From Candidatus Eiseniibacteriota bacterium (GTDB taxonomy: Bacteria > Eisenbacteria > RBG-16-71-46 > JABDJR01): a DNA stretch of 64,000 nucleotides. The DNA lies in NCBI GenBank assembly GCA_942491735.1, contig CALOCN010000001.1, forward strand, positions 1,030,071 through 1,094,070. The letters are read 5' to 3'. Positions 5,897 through 55,252 of this stretch are shown one piece after another. Below the pieces are notes generated by a model. The model was given only the letters and a program-made list of their open reading frames with translations, was not told where the DNA came from and ran no database searches. The position numbers and the translations under genes are program-made. Position 1 is the stretch's first letter, and every line of letters starts with the position of its first letter.

Positions 5897-5898
5897 CC

Positions 5899-7795: not shown

Positions 7796-8728
7796 GTGAA
7801 CATCCTCATTACCGGGGGCGCGGGCTTTATCGGCTCCAATCTCTCCGAGTTCCTTCTGGGGCAGGGCCATCGCGTCATCGCCATGGACAACCTGCTGACC
7901 GGGAAGGTGGAGAACATCGAGCACATCCACCACCCGAAGTTCACGTTCATCGACTATGACGTGACCAACTTCATCTTTGTCGACGAGCCGCTGGACTACG
8001 TGCTGCACTTCGCCAGCCCGGCCAGCCCCATCGACTATCTCAAGCTTCCCATCGCCACCCTGAAGGTGGGGGCGATCGGGACCCACAAGGCGCTCGGGTT
8101 GGCCAAGGCCAAGGGGGCGAGCTTTCTCATCGCGTCGACCAGCGAGGTCTACGGGGATCCGCTGGTCCATCCCCAGGAGGAGTCGTACTGGGGAAACGTG
8201 AACCCCATCGGCATCCGCGGGGTCTATGACGAAGCCAAGCGGTTCGCCGAGGCCATGACCATGGCGTATCACCGGTACCACAAGGTGGACACCCGGATCC
8301 TGCGGATCTTCAACACCTTCGGACCGCGGATGCGCCGCAATGACGGTCGGGCGGTGCCCACCTTCATCAATCAGGCGCTGTCGAACCAGGACATCACGGT
8401 GTTCGGGGACGGATCGCAGACCCGCTCCTTCGGCTACATCGACGACCTGGTGGAGGGCATCTACAAGCTCATGCTCTCCAGCGAGAACGACCCGGTGAAC
8501 ATCGGCAATCCGCAGGAAATGACGGTGAAGGAGATGGCCGAGACCATCATCGAGCTCACCGGCTCCAAGAGCAAGATCATCTACGCGCCGCTTCCCGAGG
8601 ACGATCCCAAGGTGCGTCAGCCGGATATCTCCAAGGCCAAGCGGGTGTTGGACTGGGAACCCCGGACCCCGGTGCGCGAGGGCCTGATCAAGACGGTAGA
8701 ATGGTTCGCTGCCAACCACTCGAAGTGA
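7796..8728 (+). CDS. UDP-glucuronate decarboxylase (UDP-xylose synthase, ArnA-decarboxylase-like SDR)
   Basis: GTG start with AGGAG 5 nt upstream; TGGAGFIGS Rossmann motif, YDEAK catalytic motif; strong by-eye similarity to UXS proteins. Confidence 0.85.
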
Positions 8729-8732
8729 AGGA

Positions 8733-9452
8733 ATGCCTGTGAAGGGCCTCGTGGTCATTCCCACCTATAACGAAGCGGACAACATCCGCGAGCTCGTCCC
8801 CCGTGTCCTGGAACAGGACCCCGGTCTGGAGATCCTCGTCGTCGACGACAACTCGGTCGACGGCACGGGGGCGATCGTCGACGAGTTGCGGGCCACCGAG
8901 CCGCGCCTGCACATTCTCCACCGACCGGGCAAGATGGGTCTGGGTACGGCGTACGTGGACGGGTTCCGCTACGCCCTCGAGCGGGACTACGAAGTCGTGT
9001 TCGAGATGGACGCGGACTTCAGTCATGACCCGGACTCCCTGCCCGCGTTTCTCGAGGCCATCCAGGACAACGACCTGGTCATCGGCTCCCGGTATCTGCA
9101 CGGGGTCACGGTCGTCAACTGGCCGCTGACCCGTCTCATTCTTTCCTACGGGGCGAACGTCTACACCCGTCTCATCACCTGGATGCCGCTCAAGGACGCC
9201 ACCGGCGGCTTCAAGTGTTTCCGGCGGGAGACCCTCGAGGCGATCGACCTGGACCGGGTGGGTTCGGACGGGTACGGCTTCCAGATCGAGATGAACTTCA
9301 AGGTGTGGCGCAAGGGCTTCCGGGTGCGCGAGATCGGCATCGTCTTCGTGGATCGCCGGGTCGGTATCAGCAAGATGAACAACAAGATCATCTGGGAGGC
9401 GATGTGGTTGGTGTGGCGTCTGCGATTCCTCGATCTCGTGGGAAGGCTCTGA
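8733..9452 (+). CDS. polyprenol-phosphate sugar synthase (Dpm1/ArnC-like GT2)
   Basis: 239 aa; VIPTYNEADNI and DADFSHDP motifs characteristic of dolichol/polyprenol-phosphate mannosyl/glycosyl transferases. Confidence 0.8.
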   Translation: MPVKGLVVIPTYNEADNIRELVPRVLEQDPGLEILVVDDNSVDGTGAIVDELRATEPRLHILHRPGKMGLGTAYVDGFRYALERDYEVVFEMDADFSHDPDSLPAFLEAIQDNDLVIGSRYLHGVTVVNWPLTRLILSYGANVYTRLITWMPLKDATGGFKCFRRETLEAIDLDRVGSDGYGFQIEMNFKVWRKGFRVREIGIVFVDRRVGISKMNNKIIWEAMWLVWRLRFLDLVGRL

Positions 9453-9456
9453 GTCC

Positions 9457-11601
9457 GTGGTCGATCTCTCGATCGTCATCGTTTCCTACCGCACACCGGA
9501 GGTGTTGCGGGAGTGCCTGAAGGTGCTCACCACGGATACGGGGACACGCAGCCGCGAGATCCTGGTGGTGGACAACGACTCGGGAGACGAGAGCCCGGCC
9601 GTGGCCCGCTCCTTCGAGGGAGTCCGGGTCATCGAGACCGGTGACAACCTGGGATTTGCCGGCGGCGTCAATCGCGGACTGGCCGAGGCCGACGGCCGTT
9701 TCCTCCTCGTCCTCAACCCGGATATCGAGGTCCAGCCCGGCTCCCTGGACACCCTGATCGACTTCATGGAGGCGCACCCCGAGACCGGGATCGCCGCCCC
9801 CAAGCTGCTCAACACCGACGGCACCCTGCAGCACTCCTGCCGCCGCTTCTACACCCTGAGCACGATCATCCTGCGACGCTCCTTCCTGGGCCGGATCTTT
9901 CCCGATGCCGCGCCGCTGCGGCGGCACCTCATGTTGGACTACGACCACGAGACCCCGCGCGCGGTCGATTGGGTGGCCGGAGCGGCCATGCTGGTGCGTC
10001 GCGAGGCGCTGGACGATGTGGGTCCCATGGACGAGCGCTACTTCCTCTACTTCGAGGACGTGGACTGGTGCACCCGCATGCAGGCCCGCGGTTGGCTGGT
10101 GCACTACGTGCCGGACAGCGTCATGACCCACCATTGGCAACGGGCGAGCCGCACCCTGGGTCCGGCCGCGCGGCGCCACCTGCGCAGCGGGCTCCGCTTC
10201 TACGACCGCTGGGGCGGGTTCCTCCATGTGCTGCGGCAATCGGCCGGTGCGTGGCGGACCGGCGCCCTCGTGGCCCTGGACCTGTTGACCATCACCGCCG
10301 CGTTTCTCCTCGCCTTCCTCGCCCGTCAGCAGATGGCCTTCTGGCTCCAGAAACCGGTCTGGTCGCTCTCCTTCTACGGCAGCTTCTTCGCGGCGAGCGT
10401 GGTGGTGTACCTGGCCGGTTTCTCCATGCAGGGGCTGTACCGGGAAGTCCGCGAGGGGGACTGGGTGGATGTGGCCTTCAGGGTGATCAAGGGAGCGACC
10501 CTGGGCGCGTTGGTGCTGATGGCATCGACCTTCGTCCTGGACATGCGCTCCTACTCCCGCGCCATCGTGCTCGCCTCGTGGCCCCTGGCCGCCATGGGCG
10601 TGTTCCTCAACCGTCGCCTGGTCTACGCGCTCAGCGCGCGGGCGCGCCGCGAGCGGTGGAACCTGCGCCGGGTCGCCCTGATCGGCGAGGACCCGGCCAT
10701 GGATCGTCTGGAAGCCACGCTCCGGGAGAACACTGAGCTGGGCTGGGAACCGGTGCGGATTCGCCGCACTCCCTGGGTGGGTCTGCCGCCCCGGGACGCC
10801 GACGCGCTGCTCATCACCCTCCTGGCCCGGGAGCGGGTCACCGAAGTGGTGGTCAGCCCCACCGCGTTGGGTGTGGCCGAGGATGCCGTGGCCGAACGCA
10901 TTCTCCCGCTGCGCCGCGCCGGTCACGGGGTTCGTCTGGTCTCCAACTTCCTCTCCGCGCTGCCTCCGCGGGCCCGGGTGGAACGGATCGGTGACGTCAG
11001 CTGGCTCGCCCTGGAACGGCCCCGCCTGCAGCCCACCAAGACCAGCAAGCGGGTGCTGGATCTGGCGGGGGCCCTTGTGCTTGGTGGGTTGGGTCTCCTT
11101 CCCGTGTTGGCCCTGGGCGCGGCCCGTGGCCTCGCCCGGCGCGAGTTTCTGGAACCTGGGACCCCCTGGAAGGGTCGATGGGGGGAGACCCTGCGTGTCC
11201 GGCGGATTGCCGGCGGGGGTCGTCTCGCCGATTACCCCCTGCTGGGCGCCGTGCTGAGGGGGCGGCTCAGCCTGGTGGGACCACGTCCGCTGGCTCCGGG
11301 GGAAACGGTTCCCGGGGGAGACGCCTGGCTTCGGGTGCGTGAGCACCACCGTCCCGGTCTGGTGGGTCCCTGGTCGCTGGTCGCGACCCAGACCCCTGAA
11401 GAGGAGATGCAACAGGAACTTCGGTATCTCGAAGATTGGACTGCGGAACTCGATCTCAAGCTCCTGGCGCGGGTGGCACTTCGCCGCCCGGGAGGCGGTC
11501 ATGGCAGCGGGTCCAGTTCTCCCGCGCGTCGCACGGAGACCGCTCCCGATGGCCGACCCTCGGCCGCCCCGCGCAGTGCCCACCCCATGGGGACCTCCTG
11601 A
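9457..11601 (+). CDS. fusion protein: N-terminal GT2 glycosyltransferase + membrane region + C-terminal polyprenyl-phosphate sugar phosphotransferase (Bac_transf-like)
   Basis: GTG start; N-terminus IVIVSYRTPE...VVDNDSGD (GT2); central hydrophobic segments; C-terminal region with RVLDLAGALVLGGLGL and PGLVGPWSL resembling WbaP/WcaJ-type sugar transferases. Confidence 0.65.
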   Translation: MVDLSIVIVSYRTPEVLRECLKVLTTDTGTRSREILVVDNDSGDESPAVARSFEGVRVIETGDNLGFAGGVNRGLAEADGRFLLVLNPDIEVQPGSLDTLIDFMEAHPETGIAAPKLLNTDGTLQHSCRRFYTLSTIILRRSFLGRIFPDAAPLRRHLMLDYDHETPRAVDWVAGAAMLVRREALDDVGPMDERYFLYFEDVDWCTRMQARGWLVHYVPDSVMTHHWQRASRTLGPAARRHLRSGLRFYDRWGGFLHVLRQSAGAWRTGALVALDLLTITAAFLLAFLARQQMAFWLQKPVWSLSFYGSFFAASVVVYLAGFSMQGLYREVREGDWVDVAFRVIKGATLGALVLMASTFVLDMRSYSRAIVLASWPLAAMGVFLNRRLVYALSARARRERWNLRRVALIGEDPAMDRLEATLRENTELGWEPVRIRRTPWVGLPPRDADALLITLLARERVTEVVVSPTALGVAEDAVAERILPLRRAGHGVRLVSNFLSALPPRARVERIGDVSWLALERPRLQPTKTSKRVLDLAGALVLGGLGLLPVLALGAARGLARREFLEPGTPWKGRWGETLRVRRIAGGGRLADYPLLGAVLRGRLSLVGPRPLAPGETVPGGDAWLRVREHHRPGLVGPWSLVATQTPEEEMQQELRYLEDWTAELDLKLLARVALRRPGGGHGSGSSSPARRTETAPDGRPSAAPRSAHPMGTS

Positions 11602-13874
11602 TGCATCACACTCCACGACACGGTCGGCTTCTCCCGGCCGTCCTGGCCCTTCTCGCGATTGCCGTCGCCCTCCCGCCGAACGTCCGGGCCCAGAACGCCG
11701 CCGACGCGTTTACCCCGTTCGTCGCCGCGTTCGACCTCACCGAGATCACCACCACCGGGGGCGTCCTGTGGATCGCCACCAACGGGGGGGGCGCGTTGCG
11801 TTTCGATCCCAACGGCGGCGGGTTCACCCAGTACCCCAAGTTGTTGGGCACCGGGCCGAGGGGCAACGACCTCGTCACCACCTGCGTCGATTCGGAGGGC
11901 CGGGTCTGGTTCGGCAGCGCCACCCGGGGTTTCACCTTCTTTGATCCGCAGACGCAGACCTGGGATCGCCGCTCGGAGGAATGGCCCGACCCACGGATCC
12001 GGGTCATCCGCTGCCTCGAGGAAGGGGTCTACATCGGCACCCAGGAGGGGCTCTCCCTGAAACCCACCGCCAACCGGACCGACATCTGTGCACCGGCCGA
12101 CCCCAGCTGCATTGTTCCCTCGTTCATCGTCAACGACTACGCCCTCCTGGACGAGAGTCTCTGGGTGGCGACCCGCGAGGGGTTGGGACGGTTCAGCGAG
12201 GGGACGTGGGACTCGCTGAACACGCTGCCGGTCGGGTCCCAGGGGCAGAACTCGCTCTCGCTGGTCACCTTCGAGGGGCAGCTCTGGGAAGCGGCGGAGT
12301 TCGCCGCCTCGACCGGGGCGGTGCGACGCCTGGTGGACGGGGCCTGGCAGGTGTTCGAGCTGCCGGCGCACAGGTTGCGCGTCCTCGACGGATCGCTCTA
12401 CGCCATCGCGGCCGGGGATCTGTTCCGCTGGGACGGTACCGCGTTCCAGCCCCTGTCCGAGCCGGTGGACGATGACATTCGCGACGTAGCTCTCCTGGAC
12501 GGTGTCTATTGGTTGACCACCGGCAACGGGTTGGTTTCCTGGAACGGCACCGCGGCCACGTCGACCCGCTTCGTTCCGCCCGGGTTGGGGCTGGGGGGGG
12601 AGTTCCAGGCCCTCACCGTGGACAGCAAGGGGACGGTGTGGGCCGGCACCATCGGGAACCGGATCGGCATTGCCTCCCGGACCCGAACCGGCGAGTGGGA
12701 CACGATCCTGCCGGGAGCGAGCGGCCTGGAGAACGAGTGGATCTTCCAGCTGTATGCCGACAGTGGGGATCGGTTGTGGATCGGACACTGCTGTTGTCCC
12801 GAGGGACGCTGCCGACTCGAGGTGGATTGTGCCGGCGGCATCGGGAGTATCGCCACCTACCGCAACGGGTGGGCGTTCGCCGAGGACAACGCCCGCCGCA
12901 TGTGGGTGGGGACGGATCAACTCGGCGCGTTGGTCTTCCGGCGCACCACGGACTGTTCCTGGGAGCTCGAGGATCAACTGACCGCCTCGGACCCCGCCGG
13001 CGTCATGTCTTCCAACAGCGTGCGCGCCATCGCGGTCACCGGGGAAGGCACCTACTTCGGCCACCTGCAGAACGGGCTCGACTACTGGCCGCACCGCGGC
13101 AACCTGAGCACGGGGCGGGACGGGTCGAACTGGATCCATGTCGGAACCACCGGCTTCGGACTCCTCGACAACAACGTGGGCTCCATTGCCCTGGTGGGGG
13201 AGGATGCCTGGGTCGGCACCTCGAGCGGCCTGCACCGGTTCCGCGCCGGGGGTCTGGTGACCCGGTGTCCCTCGCGTATTCTCGACGACCTGGACGATCA
13301 GGCCCGTCGGGTCACCGCGGTCACCGTCGATCGGGACGGGAACCTCTGGGTGGGGACGGATTCGGGACTGCTGTTCCTGCGGCGCGGAGGAGCCTGTGAC
13401 GCGGGCGGCGGCGAGTTCCTGTCCTACACCCAGGACAACTCCGCACTCCCGGACAACAACGTGCTCTCGGCCACCCTCAACCCGGTGGATGGTTCGGTCT
13501 GGATGGGAACGTCCACCGGTCTGCTGCGGATTGACCCCGCCGTCTTCACCAGCGGAGGAGGGAGCGCACCGGACCAGTACGTGCTCTATCCGAACCCCGT
13601 CGATCTGACCCGGGTCGGGGCGCGGGTGAGTCTGGGACTGGAGTCCGGCGGCTCCGTGGATCGCGTTCCCCTGGCCGATGCCCAGCAGCCGGAGGTCCTC
13701 GACATGGCGGGTCAGGCGGTGGGCCGGTTCGATACCTTCATGGATGGCGGCGACGAGGGTTGGGTGTGGAACGGGAAGAACCTGACCGGGAGCGTGGTCG
13801 CCCCGGGACTCTATTTCGTGCGAACGCAGGTCGGAGGACAGACGGTGGTGCTCAAGCTCGGGGTAGTGCGATGA
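11601..13874 (+). CDS. secreted beta-propeller protein (two-component-regulator-propeller-like repeats) with C-terminal FlgD-Ig/T9SS-like domain
   Basis: Internal ATG 11601 (overlaps upstream stop, TGATG); signal-peptide-like MHHTPRHGRLLPAVLALLAIAVALPPNVRAQ; about 10 repeats of LW[IV]GT..GL..F type; C-terminal YPNP...WNGKN..G..V..GLYFV. Confidence 0.65.
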   Translation: MHHTPRHGRLLPAVLALLAIAVALPPNVRAQNAADAFTPFVAAFDLTEITTTGGVLWIATNGGGALRFDPNGGGFTQYPKLLGTGPRGNDLVTTCVDSEGRVWFGSATRGFTFFDPQTQTWDRRSEEWPDPRIRVIRCLEEGVYIGTQEGLSLKPTANRTDICAPADPSCIVPSFIVNDYALLDESLWVATREGLGRFSEGTWDSLNTLPVGSQGQNSLSLVTFEGQLWEAAEFAASTGAVRRLVDGAWQVFELPAHRLRVLDGSLYAIAAGDLFRWDGTAFQPLSEPVDDDIRDVALLDGVYWLTTGNGLVSWNGTAATSTRFVPPGLGLGGEFQALTVDSKGTVWAGTIGNRIGIASRTRTGEWDTILPGASGLENEWIFQLYADSGDRLWIGHCCCPEGRCRLEVDCAGGIGSIATYRNGWAFAEDNARRMWVGTDQLGALVFRRTTDCSWELEDQLTASDPAGVMSSNSVRAIAVTGEGTYFGHLQNGLDYWPHRGNLSTGRDGSNWIHVGTTGFGLLDNNVGSIALVGEDAWVGTSSGLHRFRAGGLVTRCPSRILDDLDDQARRVTAVTVDRDGNLWVGTDSGLLFLRRGGACDAGGGEFLSYTQDNSALPDNNVLSATLNPVDGSVWMGTSTGLLRIDPAVFTSGGGSAPDQYVLYPNPVDLTRVGARVSLGLESGGSVDRVPLADAQQPEVLDMAGQAVGRFDTFMDGGDEGWVWNGKNLTGSVVAPGLYFVRTQVGGQTVVLKLGVVR

Positions 13875-15325
13875 CTGAGAGTCGGGTCCTCATTGTCGGC
13901 GCGGGGAGCGCCGGGCGTATGACCCTGCGGGAGCTGCGCGCCCATCCGGAATCGGGAACGGTACCGGTCGGGTTCATCGACGATGGCGCCGCGCTGCACG
14001 GCACCGAGGTCGACGGCCTGCCGGTGCTGGGGGGACGCCAGGATCTCCCCGCCCATCTGGAGGCGACCGGCGCCGAGGGCATCCTCATCGCCCTTCCGTC
14101 GGTGCACGGAGCGGTGATCCGGGAGATCGTCGAGACCTGTCGTGAAGCGCGGATCCGCTTCACCATTGTCCCCGGGATCTGGGAGATCATCCGGGGCGAC
14201 GTGCACTTCGAGCACATCCGGCGTATCGAGCCCGAGGATCTGCTCGGTCGTCAGACCGTCGAGGCCGACGCCTCCGTCCTCACCCCGGCCTATCGCGGGA
14301 AGCGGATTCTCGTCACCGGCGCGGGCGGATCCATCGGACGCGAGCTGGCCCGTCAGGTGCTGGCCCTGGAACCGGAGCGGGTCACCCTGCTGGGCCGGGG
14401 GGAGAACAGCCTCTTCGAGAGCGAGCTGCACCTGCGCCCGCATGCCGGACGCACGCCGGTAAACCTGGCCCTGGTCGACGTGCGCGACGTGGCCGCGGTG
14501 ACGCGCACCCTGGCCTCGGTGAAGCCGGACATCGTGCTTCATGCCGCCGCCCACAAGCACGTGACCTTCATGGAGCGCCACCCGGAAGAGGCCATCCTCA
14601 ACAACGTGATCGCCACCCGCAATCTCGTCGTCGCGGCCGAGGCGGCCGGGACCGAGCGCTTCGTCATGCTCTCCACCGACAAGGCGGTGAACCCGCGCAG
14701 TGTCATGGGCGCCTCCAAGCGGGTCGCGGAGCTGGTCCTGGGGGACCGCACCCGTCAGGGCTCCCCGGTGCGTCTCATGGCGGTGCGGTTCGGCAACGTG
14801 CTGGGTAGCCGGGGGTCGGTGGTCCCGCTCTTCCAGCATCAGATCGCCCGGGGAGGGCCGGTCACCGTGTCCCATCAGGACGTGGCCCGCTACTTCATGA
14901 CGGTGAGCGAGGCGGCCATGCTGGTTCTGGAAGCGGGCGCACTGGGAGACGGGGGCGAGGTGTTCATCCTCGACATGGGCGAGCAGCTCTCCATCCTGGA
15001 GTTGGCGCGGGATCTCATCGTGCTTTCGGGCAAGCGGCCCGAGACCGACATCCCGGTGGTCATTACCGGTCTTCAGACCGGCGAGAAACTCCGCGAGGAG
15101 CTGGTCCACGACTTCGAGGAACTGGCTCCCACCCGTCTGGCCAAGATTTCCGCCGCCCGGCGCCGCGAGGGCTCCGATCCCGACCTGTCCCGGGCCCTGG
15201 AAGAGCTGGAGTCGCTGGCGTTGAACGCCGATCGCCGGGGCATCGTCCATGCGCTGACCGCGTTGCTCCCCGAAGCCGAACTGGTACTCCCCGACAAGCC
15301 GGTCGCCGCGGACAGCGACGCCTGA
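13871..15325 (+). CDS. polysaccharide biosynthesis protein CapD/PglF/WbpM family (nucleotide-sugar 4,6-dehydratase), soluble form
   Basis: Internal ATG 13871 (ATGA overlap); two Rossmann-like regions (VGAGSAG, TGAGGSIG) and FGNVLGSRGSV motif. Confidence 0.8.
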   Translation: MTESRVLIVGAGSAGRMTLRELRAHPESGTVPVGFIDDGAALHGTEVDGLPVLGGRQDLPAHLEATGAEGILIALPSVHGAVIREIVETCREARIRFTIVPGIWEIIRGDVHFEHIRRIEPEDLLGRQTVEADASVLTPAYRGKRILVTGAGGSIGRELARQVLALEPERVTLLGRGENSLFESELHLRPHAGRTPVNLALVDVRDVAAVTRTLASVKPDIVLHAAAHKHVTFMERHPEEAILNNVIATRNLVVAAEAAGTERFVMLSTDKAVNPRSVMGASKRVAELVLGDRTRQGSPVRLMAVRFGNVLGSRGSVVPLFQHQIARGGPVTVSHQDVARYFMTVSEAAMLVLEAGALGDGGEVFILDMGEQLSILELARDLIVLSGKRPETDIPVVITGLQTGEKLREELVHDFEELAPTRLAKISAARRREGSDPDLSRALEELESLALNADRRGIVHALTALLPEAELVLPDKPVAADSDA

Positions 15326-15333
15326 GCGGGGCG

Positions 15334-16311
15334 GTGGTGGACGTTCTGGACGCCGACGCGCCCCCCGAGGGAATGGACGCGCTCTGGACCTCGGTGCCCG
15401 GGGCCACCCTGTTCCTGCAACCGAGATGGACCGAGACCCTTTCCCGCGCCTTTCCCGGGCTTCGGTCCCGTTATCTGATCGCCCGCGAGGGGAACCGCCT
15501 GACCGGCGTGTTGCCCTACACCCTCAAACGCAAGCTGGGTCTGGATCAGGTGCTTTCCTCCCCCTTCGGGACCCACGGGGGTCCGCTCACCGCCGACGGT
15601 CCCACCGCATCCCGTCTCGCCGAGGCGTTCCACAAGCGCGCCACCCGCCCCACCGTGGTCCGCTGCGAGCTCACCGTATTCGATCCCTCCTCGGAACTGA
15701 CCGAGGCCCTGCGCCCGTCCCTGGGCACGTGGTTCCAGGAGTTCCAGACCCACGTCATCGACCTCACCCCGGGGCACGAGGAACTCTGGCTTCACCGGTA
15801 TCGGCGCAACACCCGCAACTGTGTCCGGATGGCCGAACGGGCCGGGCTGCTCTACACGGTGGAGCGGGACGAGGCGGCGCTTGCCTTCCTCGCCCGTACC
15901 CACGCCGAACAGGCCGAGGCCTGGACCGGCATTCCTCCCGTCCCCCTGGAGGCGCTGCGGGTGGTGATGGACGCCTACGGTAATGACGCACGCATTCTGG
16001 TGGGACGCCGGGAGGGGGAGCCGGTGTGCGCCATTCTCATGCTGGAACAGTCGGGGCGGGAAACCCACGCCTGGGTCAGCGGAGCGGTGCCCGAAGCACG
16101 GCCCTTGCGCGCCTATCACGGGCTGATCGACGCCACCATCAAGGACGCCTGCTCCCGCGGGGTAGCCGCGTATCACTTCGGCGGAAGCGGTCGGAAGGAA
16201 AAGCTCGAGTTCTTCAAGGAGACCTTCGCCGCCAAACCGGTCCCCGTCTTGCGTTGCTTCCACATGGCGGGCTGGTTTCGCAGGCTCCGCCGGGGGCCGG
16301 CATGGGACTGA
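15334..16311 (+). CDS. FemAB-like / BioF2-like GNAT-fold acyl- or aminoacyl-transferase
   Basis: GTG start; by-eye resemblance to Acetyltransf_6/FemAB family proteins common in EPS loci. Confidence 0.55.
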   Translation: MVDVLDADAPPEGMDALWTSVPGATLFLQPRWTETLSRAFPGLRSRYLIAREGNRLTGVLPYTLKRKLGLDQVLSSPFGTHGGPLTADGPTASRLAEAFHKRATRPTVVRCELTVFDPSSELTEALRPSLGTWFQEFQTHVIDLTPGHEELWLHRYRRNTRNCVRMAERAGLLYTVERDEAALAFLARTHAEQAEAWTGIPPVPLEALRVVMDAYGNDARILVGRREGEPVCAILMLEQSGRETHAWVSGAVPEARPLRAYHGLIDATIKDACSRGVAAYHFGGSGRKEKLEFFKETFAAKPVPVLRCFHMAGWFRRLRRGPAWD

Positions 16312-17891
16312 GCCGGCTCCTGCCCCTGGCCCTGGTCCTGGTCGCCGTCCTGTTGGGGATCGTGCTCGTTGAGCCCTATCGCGCGGTCACGGTCGAGTTC
16401 GACGACGGACGCACCCTGTCCGTGGTGAACCCGGAACGTCTCAACCACACCTCGGACGTGTGGGACTACCTGCAGCTGGGACGCCGGTTGTTCGAGGGAT
16501 ACGGCTTCAGCAGCCGCTTCACCTATGTCCCGTTCCTGCCGGAGTCCGCCGCGTATCTGGAGGAGCATGACGCGTTCCCGCTCCTCTGGCGCCAACCCGG
16601 CTATCCGGCGCTGCTCGCCCTGGGCTACCGGTTGGCCGGGGGGCCGGACCCCAACGTCCTGCTGGCCCTGCAGCTCCTGTGGGTGATCCTGCTCCCCCTG
16701 GCCACGCTCTACCTGGCCCGCGCCCTGCTCCCGCCGGGAGGCGCCGCGCTGGCCGCCGGGCTCGCCCTGGCTTCGCCGCTCGTGCTGGGTGTACGGGAAC
16801 CCTTGGTGGCGACCACCTTCTTTGCCTGCTGGACCGCGCTCCTTTTCGGTACCGCGCTTCGGGTGCGGGGGCCCATGGGGGTGATCGGGTTGGGGCTGTT
16901 GATCGGGGTGGGGGCCTTGTTCCGCCAGGAGACCTGGCTTCTCGTTCCCGCACTGTTCACCGTGTGGTGGGTGCGAGGCGAGCGGGGGCGGGTGAGCGGG
17001 GTGGCCATCGCCGCGGTCACGGTCCTCCTCGTGCTGCTCCCCTGGATGGTTCGCACCGCGCAGATCACCGGGCACCCGTTCTACAACGCGGCGTCGCTGA
17101 TCTACCACGACACCCCGTCCTTTCCCGGCTGGGCCGCCTCGCGCACCCTGGCCATCCGCGAAACGACCCCGCTCGCGTTCATCCTGGCCCATCCCCTCGA
17201 CATCCTGGCCAAGAGTGCGCTGAACCTGCTCCGGTTCGGCAGGGACCTGCTGCTGCTGCCGGGACCTGCCGCGGCCCTGTTCGCCTGGTGGTTCCTCATT
17301 CGTCCCCAGTCGACCCAACCGCGGGTTCGCGCGTACCGGTGGGGCTACCTGGTTGCCCTTGCCGTTCCGGTACTCGTACTGGCCCCCATGGAGTACGCCC
17401 CCCGTTTTCTCGCCCCCATGGTTCCCCTGGGGGCCACCGCGGCCGCCTTCGCCCTGTCCCGGATTCCCGGTCGGTCGCGTCTGTTGACCGTCGTGGTGCT
17501 CGTGGTGTCCCTGGTCGTGCTGGTCTCCGCGATTCGCAACCGACCGGTCCGGGGAACCGCTCCCGAGGCGATTCGCGACCTGCAGGAACTGGTGTTGCAG
17601 GTGGGGCCCCGCGCACTGGAGCCGGACCAGGTCGTGGTGAGCGATGCCCCGACCCTCTTTGCCTATCTCTGGGATCGGCCGGCAGTGTGGGCACCGGTGC
17701 CGTTGAGCATGCCGGCGGTTCGGGAACTGGTCCCGGTCCGGCTCGGTCTCCTCACCTGCACGGGCGGCATCTATGACGGTCTGCCCCCGGAACTCCTGGG
17801 GCGCTACGCGGCCTACGGCCGGGTGACCCCGCATGGGTGTCGGGCCTGGGTGGACTTCGCTGACCCGCCCGCGGAAGCGACCACCCCATGA
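16302..17891 (+). CDS. polytopic membrane protein, putative GT-C glycosyltransferase (ArnT/PMT-like)
   Basis: Internal ATG 16302; many hydrophobic segments; first-loop motif DVWDYLQLGRRLFEGYG resembling the D(E)xxYxxxAR motif of GT39/GT83 enzymes; assignment tentative. Confidence 0.4.
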   Translation: MGLSRLLPLALVLVAVLLGIVLVEPYRAVTVEFDDGRTLSVVNPERLNHTSDVWDYLQLGRRLFEGYGFSSRFTYVPFLPESAAYLEEHDAFPLLWRQPGYPALLALGYRLAGGPDPNVLLALQLLWVILLPLATLYLARALLPPGGAALAAGLALASPLVLGVREPLVATTFFACWTALLFGTALRVRGPMGVIGLGLLIGVGALFRQETWLLVPALFTVWWVRGERGRVSGVAIAAVTVLLVLLPWMVRTAQITGHPFYNAASLIYHDTPSFPGWAASRTLAIRETTPLAFILAHPLDILAKSALNLLRFGRDLLLLPGPAAALFAWWFLIRPQSTQPRVRAYRWGYLVALAVPVLVLAPMEYAPRFLAPMVPLGATAAAFALSRIPGRSRLLTVVVLVVSLVVLVSAIRNRPVRGTAPEAIRDLQELVLQVGPRALEPDQVVVSDAPTLFAYLWDRPAVWAPVPLSMPAVRELVPVRLGLLTCTGGIYDGLPPELLGRYAAYGRVTPHGCRAWVDFADPPAEATTP

Positions 17892-19438
17892 GCCGCATCC
17901 GCACCAACACCGCGGCCCTTACCGTGAGTTTCTTCGCCACCGCGGCGTTCTACTTCGTCCAGCTCAAGATCATCACCAATTTCCTCAGTCAGACGCAGGT
18001 GGGCGCGTGGACCGCGGTGACCGCGACCGCGCTCCTCCTCATTCCCTTTGCCGAATTGGGGATGGCCCAGGTCCTGGTGCGCTACGGCGCCAAGTACGAG
18101 GCCGAGGGACGCGCCGGTCGATTGGTGGGGTTGTTCGTGCTCTCGTTGAAGGTTCTCGCCGGGGGCGCGCTGGTCGCGGCGGGTGTCCTGCTCCTGACCG
18201 GCCCCTCCCTGGCCGAGTTCCTCGGGAAGGGGGATGAGGAGATCAACCGATGGCTGCTGTTGTTGGGCTTCGCCGCGCTGACCACCGGTTCGCTTCGCGC
18301 CCTGAACAACGCCGCCCTGAGAGGTCTGCGTCGCATGCCGGCCATGGCCGGGTTGGAGATCGGTTTCGGCGCGCTGGTCACGGTGGGTTACTTCCTCTTT
18401 CGTGACCGTCTGGATGTGGGCATGGTGTTCGTGCTCTGGGGTGCGGCGAGCCTCGGGGTCGCGGTGAGCGGCATGGTCTATCTGGTGCGACAGTTCCGCG
18501 CGCTCCCCCCCGATCCCGCGCCCGGAGGGATCCTGCGCGAAGTGCAGGGGTTCTGGCAGGGGGCGGCGACCGGCGGCATTTTCCTCATCGCCATCGAACA
18601 ACTCGACAAGCCCATCCTGGCCGGAATGGTCACCCTGGACCAGCTCGCCCTCTTCCATGTCGCGTCGCGGCTTGCGTTGTTCCCGAGGCGATTGGCCTAT
18701 GTTCCGCTCCAGGTGCTCTACCCGGAAATCACCCACAAGTGGGAGGGGCCCCGGCGTCACGAGTTGCGCGCGGACATGGAGTTGTTCACCAAGCTGATGC
18801 TGGGACTGGGGCTGGCCATGGTCGCGGTCCTGGCCGTCTTCGCCGAACCCCTGCTCCGTCTCAGCTCCAAACCCGAGTACGTGAGCGCAGCCCCGGTGCT
18901 GTGGATGTTCCTGGCCGTGCTGCCGCTCATCTCGCTGCATCAGCCCATGGTCGTCTTCCTGCGTGCCACCGGCATGGTCTGGTACGCCTTCGTGGCCGAG
19001 GCGGCGTGGCTCGTTTCCTACCTGGGAGTGGGGATGCTGCTCCTGTCCCGGTTCGGTCTTCCCGGTTTCGTGGGTGGGCAACTGGTCGCCTCGAGCCTGG
19101 TGCTGGTCTACCTCCTGTTCATCTTCCACCGCCTGGAACTGCCCCGTCCCACCGTGGTCTTCTACCTCAAGCGCTTCCTGGTTTCGACCTTGGTGTGGGT
19201 TCCCTCCGTGGCCATCGGTTCCCGCTTCACCCCGGAGACGATTCCCGCGGCCCTGGTTGCGGTGGTGGGTCTGCTGCTGGTGGGGAATCTGATGGTGGTG
19301 TTGGGCGGTTTCCTCACCCGGGACGAGGAGGACCGGACCCTGGCCATGTTGGCCGGCCGGGGTCGTCTGGGGAGCCTGATCGGATTCTTCTTCGCCTGGC
19401 CACGACGCTTGCTGGGCCTGCGGGGGACGAGCGGGTGA
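17888..19438 (+). CDS. Wzx-like flippase (MOP-superfamily polysaccharide biosynthesis protein)
   Basis: 516 aa, hydrophobic throughout with multiple predicted TM helices; ATG overlaps upstream stop (ATGA). Confidence 0.7.
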   Translation: MSRIRTNTAALTVSFFATAAFYFVQLKIITNFLSQTQVGAWTAVTATALLLIPFAELGMAQVLVRYGAKYEAEGRAGRLVGLFVLSLKVLAGGALVAAGVLLLTGPSLAEFLGKGDEEINRWLLLLGFAALTTGSLRALNNAALRGLRRMPAMAGLEIGFGALVTVGYFLFRDRLDVGMVFVLWGAASLGVAVSGMVYLVRQFRALPPDPAPGGILREVQGFWQGAATGGIFLIAIEQLDKPILAGMVTLDQLALFHVASRLALFPRRLAYVPLQVLYPEITHKWEGPRRHELRADMELFTKLMLGLGLAMVAVLAVFAEPLLRLSSKPEYVSAAPVLWMFLAVLPLISLHQPMVVFLRATGMVWYAFVAEAAWLVSYLGVGMLLLSRFGLPGFVGGQLVASSLVLVYLLFIFHRLELPRPTVVFYLKRFLVSTLVWVPSVAIGSRFTPETIPAALVAVVGLLLVGNLMVVLGGFLTRDEEDRTLAMLAGRGRLGSLIGFFFAWPRRLLGLRGTSG

Positions 19439-20403
19439 CGGTGCGGTTCGGTTGGGGACTCGCCCAAGCCGAGCCCCTGCTGGAGCGGGCGCCCAGCCTG
19501 TTCCAGACGCCCCGTTGGCTGCACGCGTTGGCCGGCGCCTATCCCCGGTTTCGGCTCGGGGCGTTCCGGGTGGAACGGGATGGGGTGGTGACAGCGGTGC
19601 TCCCGGTGGCCCGGGCCAGGCCCTCGGGCCTGCACGAGTGGGTCTCGCTTCCCTTCGGCACCGACGGGGGGCCGGTGTTCCGGGAGACTCCCGATCCCGA
19701 GGCAGCTACGCAGCTGTTCCGGGCCTTTCGCGACCGGGTGGGGGGACTGCGGGTGGCCCGGTACGAGATGGTCATCCCCCAACCGGGTGAAACGGTGGCG
19801 CGTGCGTTTCGCGACGTGTTCTCCACCCGGGTGCGCGAGGACCGGGTGCGGGTGTTGGAATTGACCGAGGGACCCCGGGCGATCTGGGATGGCTACGCCG
19901 GTACCATGCGCACCCGGATCCGCCGTGCCCGGGAACTCGGGGTCCGGGTGGAGTCCATGCCGGCCTCGGCCCAGGCCCTGGCCCGGTTCTATCCCCCTTA
20001 CGAACGCCTCAGCCACGCATGGGATCTGTCCTGGCGTCACGACCGGGAGACCCTGGAGGCCTTGACCGCCGGTCTCGGGGATGGGGCGCGGATCTGGGTG
20101 GGATCGGTGGAGGGCCGGGTGGTCACCACCGAACTCATGCTCTACGACCGGGGCACCACCGCGCACACCTGGCTCTGCGGCGCGGTTCCCGAGTCCCGGG
20201 ATGTCTTTGCCCGCCATCTGTTGTTGCACACGGTGATCGAGAACGCCGCGCGGGAGGGCTACCGGCGGATGGTCTTCGGGGCCAGCGGGGGGAGCGACGG
20301 GGTGGACGGGTTCAAGCGCGGGTTCGGGGGCTCTCCGCGCCCCGTGCTGCGGGCCTTCCATCAGGCCCGTTGGGTCGATTGGGTGCAGCGGGCCCGATGG
20401 TGA
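19435..20403 (+). CDS. FemAB-like / BioF2-like GNAT-fold transferase (second copy)
   Basis: GTG at 19435 overlapping flippase stop (GTGA); C-terminal half resembles gene 15334-16311 (TWLCGAVPESR vs AWVSGAVPEAR; FGASGGSDG vs FGGSGRKEK). Confidence 0.55.
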   Translation: MTVRFGWGLAQAEPLLERAPSLFQTPRWLHALAGAYPRFRLGAFRVERDGVVTAVLPVARARPSGLHEWVSLPFGTDGGPVFRETPDPEAATQLFRAFRDRVGGLRVARYEMVIPQPGETVARAFRDVFSTRVREDRVRVLELTEGPRAIWDGYAGTMRTRIRRARELGVRVESMPASAQALARFYPPYERLSHAWDLSWRHDRETLEALTAGLGDGARIWVGSVEGRVVTTELMLYDRGTTAHTWLCGAVPESRDVFARHLLLHTVIENAAREGYRRMVFGASGGSDGVDGFKRGFGGSPRPVLRAFHQARWVDWVQRARW

Positions 20404-20435: not shown

Positions 20436-21464
20436 ATGAACAGACACCACATCCTCCGCCGTCCGACCGCGATCCACGCGCTGAGCCTTCTCGTTCTTGT
20501 CGCCTTCGGCTGCTCGGGAGAGCCGGGCCAGAGCGGGGAACTTGGTCCCGGGGCCTATGTCGACGAGCACGTGCCCCCGACGGTGCGTACCTCCCTCGAG
20601 GAAGCGGCAGGCAAGTTCTATGCCTCCATCCGCTCCGGGAACCCGGAGATGGTTCTCGCCCAGGTTGCCCTGGCTGCGCGCAGTCAGATCACCGCCGACC
20701 AGTTCCTCGAGTCCGTGCAACGCATCGCCGGAACCTTCGGGATGCCGGAGGACATGTCCACGGACTCGGTGGTCCTGGTGAAGTTCGGCCCGGGCTACCC
20801 GCACGCGGCCCGGGTGCGGGCCCCGGTCGAGGGGATGGACGACGACGCGGAGCTGTTGCTGACCCCGCATCCGGAGCAGGCCTCGCTGGTCCAGATCGGG
20901 CGGGTGGGCGAGGAGCGGGCCTATTTCTCGACCCTGTGGTTCAAGGAGGAAGCCGGGTGGCGGGTCGCCGCCTTCTTTGCCAAGCCGGCCACCATGGTGG
21001 GGCGCGACTGGCGCGACTACTCCGAGGAAGCGGCGTCCCAGCGACTGGCCAAGAACAACCGCAACGCGGCGATTCTCTACAACCTCGCCATCGATCTCAC
21101 CGTTCCGGCGGCGTGGATCAAACCGGCCGGGGTGGCCGAGCTGCAACGCGCGCAGAAGCGCATCATGGTCACCCAGCTTCCCACCGGAAAGCCGGAGGTC
21201 TGGGGGGCCGCACCCGACACCTTCTCCGTGGCCCGGGTCGGCTATGGCTGGGTTCCCGAGGGCCTGACCGTCTACGTGCAGTACCAGGCGACCGGCACCG
21301 ACAGCCTGTCCGAGGCTCCGCACAGCGAGCGGCTCAGGGACTATGTCGTGGAGACCTTCCCGGAGTACCGTGAAGTGTTCACCGGCATGTCCGCGGTGGG
21401 CTATCGCCCGGGGGAATCCACCCCGGTCCTGTCCCGCAACTTCTTCTGGAAGGACGGGTCGTGA
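20436..21464 (+). CDS. hypothetical lipoprotein
   Basis: ATG 20436; signal peptide with lipobox LVAFGC; preceded by an AT-rich stretch (tgatacactttttcggattttg); no recognisable domain. Confidence 0.55.
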   Translation: MNRHHILRRPTAIHALSLLVLVAFGCSGEPGQSGELGPGAYVDEHVPPTVRTSLEEAAGKFYASIRSGNPEMVLAQVALAARSQITADQFLESVQRIAGTFGMPEDMSTDSVVLVKFGPGYPHAARVRAPVEGMDDDAELLLTPHPEQASLVQIGRVGEERAYFSTLWFKEEAGWRVAAFFAKPATMVGRDWRDYSEEAASQRLAKNNRNAAILYNLAIDLTVPAAWIKPAGVAELQRAQKRIMVTQLPTGKPEVWGAAPDTFSVARVGYGWVPEGLTVYVQYQATGTDSLSEAPHSERLRDYVVETFPEYREVFTGMSAVGYRPGESTPVLSRNFFWKDGS

Positions 21465-22606
21465 CCGGGGAGGCCTCGGCCGAGCCCCGCAAGTTGACTC
21501 TGGCGTACCTCTCGATCGGCCGACACATCCACACCGAGCGGTGGCTGACCTGGTTCGCCCGGCAGGGGCACGACGTGCATCTGCTCACCGTGCAGCCGGG
21601 GCCCATGCCGGGAGTGACCGTCCACGACATCACCACCCCGTTCGGGCCCAAGCCGCTGCGCTACGCGCTCAGCCTGGCCAAGGTGAAACGCATCCTCACC
21701 GGTCTGGACCCGGATCTGCTCCACACCCATTTCCTGACCGGTTATGGATACTGGGGCGTGTTCAGCGGACGGCGTCCGTTCATGCTCACCGTCTGGGGGG
21801 ACGACGTCTACGTGACCCCGTTCGAGAGCGGGATGAAGAATCGCCTCGCCCGCAAGGCCCTCCGCGAGGCGGACTACGTGACCGGGGACTCGGTCGACAT
21901 CATTGATGCCTGCATCGAACTGGGTTCCGACCCGGCCCTGAGCGAGGTCGTGCAGTGGGGGGTGGACTTCACCCGGTTTACCCATGAGGTGGACGGCTCC
22001 GCAGTACGACAGAAGCTGGGCATCCCGGTCGATGCCCCGGTGGTGCTCTCCACCCGTTCGTTCACCCAGGCGTACTACAACATCGACCTCGTAGTGGACA
22101 CCGCGCCCAGGGTGCGGGAGCGCATCCCCGGGGTGCACTACATCATCGCCGGGAACGAGGGGGACGACACCGCGTTTCGCGCCCATGCCGCCTCGGTCGG
22201 GCTCACCGACCGGGTGCACTGGGTGGGACGCATTCCCCACGGGGAACTTCCCGCGTACCTCACCGCGAGCGATGTCTTTCTCACCATCCCCTCGGTGGAC
22301 GCGACCGCGGTCAGCCTGCTCGAGGCCATGGCCTGTCGCTGCGCCATCGTGGCCACCGATCTCCCCTCCGCGGCCGAGTGGGTGCTGAACGGGGAGACCG
22401 GTCTTACCGTGACCCCGCGCGACGCGGAGGGTCTGGTCACCGCCATCTGCCGCTTCCTCGAGGATCCGGTCCTTGGAGAGAAGGTGGGCGTCGCGGCCCA
22501 GACCCTGGTCCGGGGCAAGGCGGACCATGACCGCAACATGGCCCGGGTCGAAACCATCTACTACGACCTCGTGGCCGGGCGCAAACCGGTTCCGCCCACC
22601 GGGTGA
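21461..22606 (+). CDS. glycosyltransferase family 4
   Basis: GTG start overlapping upstream stop; C-terminal GT-B region LLEAMACRCAIVATDLPSAAEWVLNGETG. Confidence 0.8.
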   Translation: MTGEASAEPRKLTLAYLSIGRHIHTERWLTWFARQGHDVHLLTVQPGPMPGVTVHDITTPFGPKPLRYALSLAKVKRILTGLDPDLLHTHFLTGYGYWGVFSGRRPFMLTVWGDDVYVTPFESGMKNRLARKALREADYVTGDSVDIIDACIELGSDPALSEVVQWGVDFTRFTHEVDGSAVRQKLGIPVDAPVVLSTRSFTQAYYNIDLVVDTAPRVRERIPGVHYIIAGNEGDDTAFRAHAASVGLTDRVHWVGRIPHGELPAYLTASDVFLTIPSVDATAVSLLEAMACRCAIVATDLPSAAEWVLNGETGLTVTPRDAEGLVTAICRFLEDPVLGEKVGVAAQTLVRGKADHDRNMARVETIYYDLVAGRKPVPPTG

Positions 22607-23547
22607 CCATGCGGATCTCGGTCGTCACCCCCACCTACAACAAGCCGGACCTGCTCGCCCGGACCCTGACCGCGCTGGAAGCCCAGGACCTGGAGCCCAC
22701 CACGTTCGATGTGGTGGTCGTCGACGATGGATCGGACAACGTCCGGACGGCGGAGTTGTTGGCGACCCATCGACCCCGCCACGGATTCACCGTGGTGCGG
22801 GTGGAGGAGAACCGGGGACGCGCCGCGGCGCGCAATCGCGGGTTGGAACGGGCCGAGGGGGAGTTGGTCGTCTTTCTCGACGACGACATGGAACTGGTGC
22901 CGGGATTCCTGGGCGCCCACGCCGACCTGCACCGGCGGATGAACAAGGTGGCCGGAGTGGGGGATGTGCAGAACCATCCCGAGATCACCATGGCCCCCAT
23001 TGATCGCTACATGTCGACCCGGGGGGCGCAGAAGATACGGGACCGGGGGGCGCTCCCCTGGAAGTACTTCAGCACCAACAACTCCTCGGTGCGTCGTGAC
23101 GACCTGGTCGCGGTGGGCGGGTTCGACGAGAATTTCCGCTACTACGGGTTCGAGGACCTCGAGCTGGCCTATCGTCTGGAGCAGAAGCGGGAGGTCACCC
23201 TGCGCTTCGTGGAGGGGGCGAAGTCGCTCCACATCCACCCCCACACCCTGGACGAGGTGCTCGACAAGAAGACCCTGTGCGGGCGGTCCTCCTTGCCCTA
23301 CCTCTTCGACAAGCATCCCGAGACCCGGGCCGCGCTGGGGTACACACGCTTCGATCCGCCTCGGGCGGGGGACCCCCTGGGATTGAACCTGCAACGACTG
23401 TTCCTGCGCATCCTGCTCACCCGGCCCGTCTACACCCTGGTGAAGCCTCTGGCCCTGCTTCCCCTGGGCGCACTCACCAACCGGGCCATCGACTTCCTGG
23501 TGCAGTACCACTATCTGGAAGGACTGCGCGCCCCGCGCCTGCCATGA
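22603..23547 (+). CDS. glycosyltransferase family 2
   Basis: ISVVTPTYNKPDLL and VVDDGSDN motifs, DxD-like FLDDDME; start GTG 22603 or ATG 22609. Confidence 0.8.
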   Translation: MTMRISVVTPTYNKPDLLARTLTALEAQDLEPTTFDVVVVDDGSDNVRTAELLATHRPRHGFTVVRVEENRGRAAARNRGLERAEGELVVFLDDDMELVPGFLGAHADLHRRMNKVAGVGDVQNHPEITMAPIDRYMSTRGAQKIRDRGALPWKYFSTNNSSVRRDDLVAVGGFDENFRYYGFEDLELAYRLEQKREVTLRFVEGAKSLHIHPHTLDEVLDKKTLCGRSSLPYLFDKHPETRAALGYTRFDPPRAGDPLGLNLQRLFLRILLTRPVYTLVKPLALLPLGALTNRAIDFLVQYHYLEGLRAPRLP

Positions 23548-26060: not shown

Positions 26061-27740
26061 TCAGCCGAGCTGGGTTGCCATGAACTCGGCAACCTGATCG
26101 GCCCCCTCGCGGGCCTTGGCCACCAGGGTTTCCGCCTTGGAACGGGTGGAGTCGAGCCACGCGTCGTCCCCCTGGATGCCTCCCAGGTTGATGAGCACGT
26201 TGTAGTAGGCCCCTTCCGCGCAGGCGCGGGCGGCCAGCGCGGCAACGCCGGCATCGCTGACCGAGTTCGGGTTACCGTGCTGCACGCAGGTCAGGGCCAA
26301 CCCGAAGATCGGTACGGTGCGCTCGAGCACCCGCAGGGGAACCCGGGTTGCGCCCCGGTTGGCCTCCATGAGCGCCTGGTTCTTGGCGTTCATTTCCTCT
26401 TCCGTGGTGGCGCGGGTGCGGATGGCGTCCATGACCTTGTTGAAGGCGGCCGTATCCTCGTCGACCGCGCGCAGGAGCTGGTCCTTGATGTCCTGGGCAT
26501 CCTCGGCGATGTCCGCCATGCGTTCCCAGTGCTCCTCGTGCCCCGCCCGGCCCAGGGTCAGGTTGGCCACCATGCTGGTCAGGGCCGCTCCCAGCGCGCC
26601 GCACAACGCGGCCACGCTGCCGCCGCCGGGAGCCGGGGCGTCGGTGGAGAGTTCGTCGGCGAACTCGGCCAGGGTCCGGGACGCCAGCCGGTTGGCTCCG
26701 GAGTCGCGGGCGAGGCGGAACTCGATGATCTTCTCGTCCGGGTCGAACGCGGCGATCTCCCTTAGGCCCAGGGACTGGATCGCGGTCTCGACGACCTGAC
26801 GCACCGGGATACCGGTCGACTTGCCTTGCCGCTTGAGATAGTGCTTTCCCGCCTCCAGCATCGGCTCCAGGGGAATGAGCCCCACCAGCTCCGATCCGGT
26901 GACCCGCAGCCCCCGCTTGCGCGCTTCCTCCTCGATGACATCGAAGGCGGTGTGGGGCGGGGTGATCTTGGTGTTGACGAGGTTGATGGAGACCTGGGCC
27001 CGGTCGTACTCCTCGATGAACCAGCCCACGCCCTTGAAGGCCTTCAGCCGGCCGGGGACCTTCACCGCGGTGCCGTCCGGGTGGCGGATGATCTCGCCGT
27101 GGGCGTCCCGCTTGGCGCGCCCCGCCTCGCGCACGTCCAGGGCGATGTCCTGGGCCAGGCGGCGGTCGCGGGTGTTGAGATTCACGTTGTAGGCGATGAG
27201 GAACTCCCGCGCGCCAATGGCCGTTGCTCCCGACTTGGCGTTGTGTACGGGCGGGCCGAAGTCCGGGGCCCACTGCGGGTTCGTCACCTTGGCCGGCAGC
27301 CCCTCGTACTCGCCCTGGCGTACGTCGGCCAGGTTCTGCCGCTCCGGCCTGGACGCCGCTTCCTCGTAGAGATAGACCGGGATCCCCAGCTCGTCACCGA
27401 CCCGCTTGCCCAGACGCCGGGCCAGCTCCGCGCACTCGGCCATGGTGATGTCCGACACCGGGACAAAGGGACAGACATCGGTGGCGCCCATGCGGGCGTG
27501 CGCTCCGGTGTGCTGGCGCATGTCGATGAGCGTCGCGGCGGTTCGGATCCCGTTGAACGCCGCCTCCAGGACTGCCTCGGGCTCACCGACGAAGGTCACC
27601 ACGGTCCGGTTGGTGGCCTGCCCCGGATCGACGTCCAGGAGCGTGGCTCCCTCGGTGTCGCCGATGGCGGCGGTGATCTGATCGATGACGGCCTTGTTGC
27701 GACCTTCGGAGAAGTTGGGGACGCACTCGACGATGGGCAT
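26061..27740 (-). CDS. ftcD: bifunctional glutamate formimidoyltransferase-cyclodeaminase
   Basis: Internal ATG at 27740; N-terminus MPIVECVPNFSEGRNKAVID and C-terminal PGGGSVAA / YYNVLINLGG closely resemble FTCD transferase and cyclodeaminase domains. Confidence 0.85.
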   Translation of the reverse strand: MPIVECVPNFSEGRNKAVIDQITAAIGDTEGATLLDVDPGQATNRTVVTFVGEPEAVLEAAFNGIRTAATLIDMRQHTGAHARMGATDVCPFVPVSDITMAECAELARRLGKRVGDELGIPVYLYEEAASRPERQNLADVRQGEYEGLPAKVTNPQWAPDFGPPVHNAKSGATAIGAREFLIAYNVNLNTRDRRLAQDIALDVREAGRAKRDAHGEIIRHPDGTAVKVPGRLKAFKGVGWFIEEYDRAQVSINLVNTKITPPHTAFDVIEEEARKRGLRVTGSELVGLIPLEPMLEAGKHYLKRQGKSTGIPVRQVVETAIQSLGLREIAAFDPDEKIIEFRLARDSGANRLASRTLAEFADELSTDAPAPGGGSVAALCGALGAALTSMVANLTLGRAGHEEHWERMADIAEDAQDIKDQLLRAVDEDTAAFNKVMDAIRTRATTEEEMNAKNQALMEANRGATRVPLRVLERTVPIFGLALTCVQHGNPNSVSDAGVAALAARACAEGAYYNVLINLGGIQGDDAWLDSTRSKAETLVAKAREGADQVAEFMATQLG

Positions 27741-27810
27741 GCGGGCTCCTGTGGGACATGGGCGAAAGGGGAAAGAGGCAACGAGTCTAGGGAGCGGGGG
27801 AGACGGGGTC

Positions 27811-35529: not shown

Positions 35530-35614
35530 GTCGAAAACCTCCCGTTCGAGATGCAGGGACGTCTTCGGGGCGGGGAACGCCGGACGAGTGACGCGGGGGG
35601 ATCAGCGCACGGCA

Positions 35615-41669: not shown

Positions 41670-41777
41670 GAATGGGACTCCTGAGGTTGCGGTGGGCCTA
41701 CGAGCATACCACTTTGATCTCTTATCGAACAAAGTCTTTAGTCAACTGCAACCGGTTGCTGGATATGCGTTTGTGGC

Positions 41778-55159: not shown

Positions 55160-55252
55160 GGAGCACCTCCTGGGAGCTATCCAGAGACGCGCATTTTCCG
55201 CGGCGACGAGGCCATCCTGACCGTGAAGCCGTCCACGAAAACCCCTGCCCCG

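Follow-up and report, generated by a model that had tools for sequence, protein, structure and literature searches.

FemX-fold paralogues in a conserved Candidatus Eiseniibacteriota glycan operon as candidate aminoacyltransferases

What role might two FemAB-like transferases have when they stand on either side of a membrane glycosyltransferase and a flippase in a glycan operon? We considered this question for a 64,000-nucleotide stretch of DNA (hereafter the window) from a Candidatus Eiseniibacteriota bacterium (GenBank assembly GCA_942491735.1, contig CALOCN010000001.1, positions 1,030,071 to 1,094,070 of the forward strand). In the window, genes A (15334-16311) and B (19435-20403), which are both on the + strand, begin with GTG and encode proteins of 325 and 322 amino acids (aa), respectively, bracket genes for a PMT_2/GT-C membrane protein and a Wzx-type flippase. 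A sequence-only reading of this DNA had described these four genes and had proposed that the two transferases decorate a lipid-linked glycan with amino acids or acyl groups. The four-gene layout is confirmed at the same positions and strand. As to function, our judgement leans modestly towards aminoacylation, with A and B each attaching an amino acid, for which aminoacyl-tRNA is the probable donor, to a sugar in the operon's glycan precursor.

Paralogy, fold and conservation of the pair

GC content in the window is 64-71% (2-kb windows) and spurious open reading frames (ORFs) are many; real frames were picked by third-position GC (GC3), which is 0.84-0.86 in each of A, the GT-C gene, the Wzx gene and B. 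Starts and stops overlap at all three junctions, by 10 nucleotides between A and the GT-C gene, as ATGA between the GT-C and Wzx genes, and as GTGA between the Wzx gene and B, which makes co-translation of the four genes almost certain. On an identical 5-kb Logan contig, genes called independently agree with this for A and its neighbours, including the boundaries of A and the GT-C gene. Aligned with one another, the two proteins are 34% identical over 301 columns (E 3e-44), a similarity that is far beyond chance and covers essentially their whole length; the shared C-terminal motifs on which the sequence-only reading had remarked are real, though they understate this paralogy. Transmembrane segments are lacking in A and B, both of which are soluble by sequence, and each protein ends in a basic C-terminal helix (WFRRLRR in A and WVQRARW in B).

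Both paralogues pass the gathering threshold (22 bits) of the Pfam family Acetyltransf_6 (PF13480), with 58.0 bits for A and 48.5 bits for B. The sole NCBIfam match of A is to TIGR03019 (FemAB-family XrtA/PEP-CTERM system-associated), where residues 15-306 align with model positions 4-282 of 330; B matches this model as well and, weakly, the FemX equivalog NF047883, whose cut-off is far from reached. In single-sequence searches of the PDB, B retrieved FemX at E ~0.15 and A retrieved nothing meaningful. A profile of 29 family members searched against the whole PDB returned only the FemX enzymes of Weissella (E 5e-9) and Staphylococcus aureus (E 1.9e-5). The wider family comprises 19,074 representatives at E <=1e-3, and 171 at E <=1e-30, in a library clustered at 50% identity. 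Among 102 wider homologues that were tested, all match TIGR03019 and 27 match the FemX equivalog. Database labels of the relatives include "CelD/BcsL family acetyltransferase", "predicted N-acyltransferase", "hypothetical protein" and "GNAT acetyltransferase".

AlphaFold modelled both proteins with high confidence (pLDDT 93.2 and 92.9 for A and B, respectively), and their predicted tandem-GNAT fold is nearest to that of the solved Fem enzymes. The top 11 Foldseek matches of A are FemX, FemA, Sba18 and Sbb17 (E 1e-17 to 9e-14), with MprF next, and both models place aminoacyl-tRNA-dependent Fem-type structures far above acetyl-CoA GNATs. Profile alignment sets the family motif FFKESF on VFKHVF of FemX, such that F294-K295 of A correspond to F304-K305 of the Weissella enzyme, of which K305 is the catalytic lysine according to a 2026 review of aminoacyl-tRNA-dependent enzymes (PMC12945691). 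K295 is kept in 145 of 145 aligned distant homologues and is the sole invariant column in a 102-sequence alignment of distant homologues (mean column identity 17%). The lysine is also invariant in both paralogue clades, and the B clade retains the Phe-Lys motif together with the other family invariants. The canonical acetyl-CoA motif A (Q/R-x-x-G-x-G/A, at the beta4-alpha3 junction) was sought in A and B and is absent from both. In addition, a basic helix of A and B aligns with FemX residues ~163-179, the proposed tRNA-binding region of FemX; as judged from this alignment, the helix would be the sole hint here of an aminoacyl-tRNA donor.

The sequence-only reading had named one outcome that would overturn it, namely that the two proteins classify as ordinary acetyl-CoA-dependent GNAT acetyltransferases. 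The FemX profile match, the ranking of Fem folds, the conserved lysine and the absence of motif A all speak otherwise, and structure prediction, which that reading had suggested as a check, brings both models closest to the aminoacyl-tRNA-dependent Fem-type structures. Its FemAB-like classification thus stands, while its decoration of the glycan with amino acids is carried forward here as a proposal.

Orthologues of A form about 30 clusters at 44-57% identity, and those of B only three at 41-45%. Look-ups in genomes and metagenomes added eight distinct loci to the window, which brings the total to nine; five of the eight carry the label of Candidatus Eisenbacteria metagenome-assembled genomes. 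Gene order is kept across these loci, down to the flanking endonuclease III gene. In all nine, A lies between a dehydratase gene directly upstream and the GT-C gene directly downstream, while B is present in five (the window, L002/L004, L003, L006 and L009); A is the core enzyme and B an accessory paralogue. The two form sister clades in a neighbour-joining tree, with longer branches in the B clade; the duplication is thus old, and repeated losses of B have followed. Together they constitute a lineage-specific subfamily in an uncultured phylum, and genes like them have been described before in other bacteria.

Candidate reaction and competing explanations

Gene order, paralogy, fold, the conserved catalytic lysine, the absence of the acetyl-CoA motif and the conservation of the locus are directly supported; what lies beyond these is inference: the use of a tRNA donor, which amino acid is carried, which sugar and atom receive it, and in what order the enzymes act. 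As soluble cytoplasmic enzymes with the tandem-GNAT fold of FemX and VimA, A and B would operate at the cytoplasmic face, where aminoacyl-tRNA would be available as the amino-acid donor. (VimA is an enzyme of the Wbp/Vim pathway in Porphyromonas gingivalis and Tannerella forsythia that is reported to match TIGR03019; PMC7468200.) The amino acid would be placed onto a nucleotide-sugar or an undecaprenyl-pyrophosphate-linked intermediate, and this step would precede flipping of the unit across the inner membrane by Wzx. The invariant adjacency of A and the 4,6-dehydratase gene suggests that A modifies the dehydratase-derived sugar, whereas B may act on a second position or lengthen the first residue, in the way that FemA builds on the FemX product. 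The lipid-linked nature that the sequence-only reading had ascribed to the modified glycan is not established by this locus, since the modified sugar of the VimA precedent is believed to be finished ahead of its transfer.

Several observations weigh against aminoacylation from tRNA. Sub-threshold matches to FemAB PF02388 (15.8 bits for A and 16.6 bits for B) miss the cut-off of 24 bits, and those to TIGR03019 (74.3 and 46.7 bits) miss the equivalog cut-off of 260.35 bits; by score, neither protein is a formal member of PF02388 or TIGR03019, and of the two Pfam families to which the sequence-only reading had pointed, Acetyltransf_6 is matched and FemAB is not. PF13480 also holds assumed acetyltransferases, such as BspF. 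For members of the family in polysaccharide clusters, no biochemical demonstration of a tRNA donor was found in the literature: the VimA papers (PMC7468200, PMC13086638) do not mention tRNA, and the donor of HfsK, a FemX-like tandem GNAT of Caulobacter crescentus, is unknown (PMC5362036). Lastly, neither a DegT sugar aminotransferase nor a CE4 deacetylase was found among the 38 ORFs of the 64-kb window that were scanned with Pfam, and therefore no free amine acceptor is evident.

The main rival explanation is that A and B are N- or O-acyltransferases which use acyl-CoA or another non-tRNA donor and place acetyl or other acyl groups onto the glycan. Such an activity is implied by the Pfam family name and by the JGI names of the orthologues, and the authors of the HfsK study leave the acyl donor open (PMC5362036). 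It survives because no donor is proven in the polysaccharide-associated group and no amine-generating enzyme was found in the window. Nevertheless, the catalytic lysine of FemX is invariant, the Q/RxxGxG/A motif is absent, and the related VimA dictates the choice of amino acid to be incorporated, so that we consider CoA-dependent acyl transfer to be rather unlikely. The nearest solved structures are peptidoglycan enzymes, which would fit a pair acting on peptidoglycan precursors in the manner of FemX, FemA and FemB and residing in a glycan operon by chance. We give this almost no credence, as translation couples A and B to the genes for the dehydratase, GT-C and Wzx in an order kept in nine loci, their PF02388 and NF047883 scores are far below cut-off, and the scanned window ORFs yielded neither a mur gene nor any other peptidoglycan gene.

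One of the paralogues, most likely the fast-evolving and dispensable B, could instead be a non-catalytic partner or regulator of A. Its absence from four of the nine loci and its longer tree branches are consistent with such a role, but its clade retains the Phe-Lys motif along with the remaining family invariants, and the high-confidence model of B has the same fold; a non-catalytic B is therefore quite improbable in our estimation. Transfer of an amino acid by both A and B is the reading that we prefer.

The surrounding operon and T9SS-type proteins

The operon spans at least from the start of the window to 23547, with the endonuclease III gene next (Table 1). Of its glycosyltransferases, the small GT2 likely supplies a lipid-linked donor to the GT-C enzyme, and the fusion of a GT2 with a phosphoglycosyltransferase is likely the initiating enzyme. 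Gene calling on the identical Logan contig gives the 4,6-dehydratase a length of 468 aa. The Pfam scan of 38 window ORFs identified no exosortase, PEP-CTERM, Wzy or Wza. In each of the related loci, the conserved lipoprotein gene comes after B or, if there is no B, after Wzx, and its product may be a periplasmic partner of the pathway. The pair formed by the ADH-GFO_IDH_MocA fusion and the heparinase-like gene recurs in L009, and in L002 the heparinase-like gene stands directly after the methyltransferase gene.

Table 1. Genes of the glycan operon and other window proteins with C-terminal domains of the T9SS (type IX secretion system). GT, glycosyltransferase family; SDR, short-chain dehydrogenase/reductase.
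No.	Feature	Position	Strand	Details
1	GT4			first operon gene in the window; covers 554-632
2	SDR epimerase			
3	GT2			
4	Methyltransferase			
5	ADH/GFO_IDH_MocA oxidoreductase fusion	within 3737-7767 (with gene 6)	+	719 aa
6	Heparinase II/III-like protein	within 3737-7767 (with gene 5)	+	
7	SDR			
8	Small GT2, polyprenyl-phosphate-sugar synthase-like	8700-9452	+	PF00535 E 1.8e-34; sub-threshold PpgS, AglJ
9	GT2 + polyprenyl-phosphate glycosyl-phosphotransferase (Bac_transf) fusion	9457-11601	+	PF00535, PF02397, TIGR03025
10	Secreted Reg_prop beta-propeller with T9SS-type C-terminal sorting domain	11601-13874	+	PF07494; signal peptide
11	PglF/CapD-type membrane-associated nucleotide-sugar 4,6-dehydratase (Polysacc_synt_2)	13919-15325	+	PF02719 E 1.3e-97
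12	A, FemX-fold tandem-GNAT transferase	15334-16311	+	
13	GT-C-type polytopic membrane glycosyltransferase	16302-17891	+	529 aa; ~9 hydrophobic segments; PMT_2 PF13231 28.1 vs 26.1 bits
14	Wzx/MOP-family flippase	17888-19438	+	516 aa; ~10 hydrophobic segments; Polysacc_synt PF01943 44.8 vs 28.2 bits
15	B, FemX-fold tandem-GNAT transferase	19435-20403	+	
16	Conserved lipoprotein	20436-21464	+	342 aa; lipobox LVAFGC; no Pfam/NCBIfam match
17	GT4	21461-22606	+	~75% identity to relatives
18	GT2	22603-23547	+	closes operon; ~75% identity to relatives
	Secreted-looking protein of unknown type, T9SS-type C-terminal domain	34021-35601	-	
	GH16 glucanase, T9SS-type C-terminal domain	39630-41741	-	
	FG-GAP repeat protein, T9SS-type C-terminal domain	51806-55252	-	
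	Beta-helix protein, T9SS-type C-terminal domain	58297-62739	+	1481 aa

In seven of the nine loci, an extra gene pair lies between the GT-C and Wzx genes, encoding a soluble protein of 424-428 aa and an Acetyltransf_9 GNAT of 337-357 aa. This pair is carried by L002 (12618-14902), L003, L005, L006, L007, L009 and L010 and is absent from L008 and from the window, where the corresponding point is ~17888. The 424-428 aa protein has conserved SNDLD and NHGGAHD motifs; its assignment as a deacetylase was considered and is unsupported, with no Pfam, NCBIfam or PDB match for the 424-aa protein. Elsewhere in the window, a tRNA-Ser(GCT) called by ARAGORN at 554-632 on the - strand is probably a false positive, as no Rfam tRNA reaches the gathering score there and the call lies opposite the GT4 coding region. 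A 690-aa formiminotransferase-cyclodeaminase (FTCD_N, FTCD and FTCD_C domains; 26064-28133, - strand) has an N-terminal extension of ~130 residues and is unrelated to the glycan operon.

Five window proteins, one encoded inside the operon and four large secreted-looking ones encoded elsewhere, carry a C-terminal domain of the Por_Secre_tail or FlgD_ig type, which suggests heavy use of T9SS-like sorting outside Bacteroidota. The operon member is the beta-propeller, which matches the NCBIfam PorZ model NF052228 at E 1.5e-23 (83 bits, below the 260-bit cut-off) and the PorZ structure 5m11 at E 2.5e-9, with two-component sensor propellers scoring better. Its gene is joined to that of the GT2-phosphoglycosyltransferase by a TGATG overlap; a frameshift between these two ORFs was considered and rejected, since the propeller gene starts with an ATG of its own at 11601 and encodes a signal peptide. 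In L002 (4171-8502) the two, which are separate in the window (9457-13874), are called as one ORF of 1443 aa. Such a fusion of a cytoplasmic enzyme with a secreted domain would be odd, and the call may be an artefact of assembly or gene prediction.

A more specific hypothesis is that the operon is the counterpart of the linking-saccharide pathway of Porphyromonas anionic lipopolysaccharide (A-LPS), in which A, with or without B, builds an aminoacyl-sugar anchor and the PorZ-like propeller delivers the glycan to the sortase. The free alpha-amine of the aminoacyl-sugar would then serve as the nucleophile that the T9SS sortase joins to its cargo proteins. We regard this as a long shot. If true, amino-acid-sugar anchoring of T9SS cargo would extend beyond Bacteroidota and would employ another sugar pathway, one built on a 4,6-dehydratase instead of Wbp enzymes.

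FemX-like tandem GNATs in polysaccharide loci are a very large family (~19,000 clusters at 50% identity), to which this locus adds a lineage-specific pair of core and accessory paralogues in a compact, conserved operon with a T9SS-sorted PorZ-like protein. The finding alone is a well-supported annotation and not a surprise. Were the dependence on aminoacyl-tRNA proven, it would speak for a general route by which the translation machinery feeds the decoration of surface glycans in uncultured bacteria of the FCB group, and would offer a handle on the anchoring of T9SS cargo in these bacteria.

Comparison with known systems

Of the characterised Fem enzymes, Weissella viridescens FemX resembles A and B in its Phe-Lys catalytic motif, its basic helix at ~163-179, its size and the lack of a coiled-coil arm. 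Identity to FemX (W. viridescens and S. aureus) and to S. aureus FemA is nonetheless only ~15-17%, and A and B fall below the Pfam FemAB threshold. Moreover, they reside in a Wzx-dependent glycan operon and not in a setting of peptidoglycan synthesis, so that their acceptor must differ from that of FemX and FemA. The TIGR03019 family is matched over nearly its full length and is always found in exopolysaccharide loci, but the sorting signals in the window are of the T9SS/FlgD_ig type, with no exosortase or PEP-CTERM among the scanned ORFs.

Transfer of amino acids onto amino sugars has been described for the streptothricin-type aminoacyl-tRNA-dependent peptide synthases, of which Sbb17 and Orf11 use Gly-tRNA to aminoacylate an amino sugar (PDB 9wqx). 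The acceptor in Sbb17, Sba18 and Orf11 is an amino-sugar amine, as it may be for A and B; these are, however, secondary-metabolite enzymes of Streptomyces that are shorter (286 aa) and share 16-18% identity with the pair. A likeness in context is offered by HfsK, which is needed for a cohesive holdfast polysaccharide (PMC5362036) and is thus a FemX-like tandem GNAT tied genetically to a polysaccharide of Wzx/Wzy type. HfsK is soluble yet acts at the membrane and has a basic C-terminal tail, comparable to the basic helix in which A and B end. HfsK also binds cyclic di-GMP and is proposed to work with the deacetylase HfsH. Myxococcus ExoG/ExoI was considered as a further precedent and dropped, as the papers searched gave no confirmation of it.

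VimA provides a precedent for amino-acid specificity, in that the choice between Ser and Gly as the N-linked residue on the sugar depends on it. When the vimA genes of Porphyromonas and Tannerella were swapped, Gly took the place of Ser on the T9SS linking sugar (PMC7468200; PMC13086638). VimA acts as one enzyme rather than as two paralogues; it adjoins the CE4 deacetylase VimE and requires WbpA, WbpB, WbpE and WbpD, whereas the scanned window ORFs have no CE4, DegT or WbpD homologue. Among these partners, only the GFO_IDH_MocA domain is represented in the window, in the oxidoreductase fusion, and DegT, LbH acetyltransferase and CE4 proteins were not found. The likeness of A to VimA is through their shared match to TIGR03019, not through direct alignment, and extends to context: VimA functions in glycan biosynthesis in a T9SS organism, and the window encodes T9SS-type cargo, with a PorZ-like protein in the operon itself. 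VimA thereby shows that an enzyme of this kind can decide the amino acid on a sugar that anchors secreted proteins.

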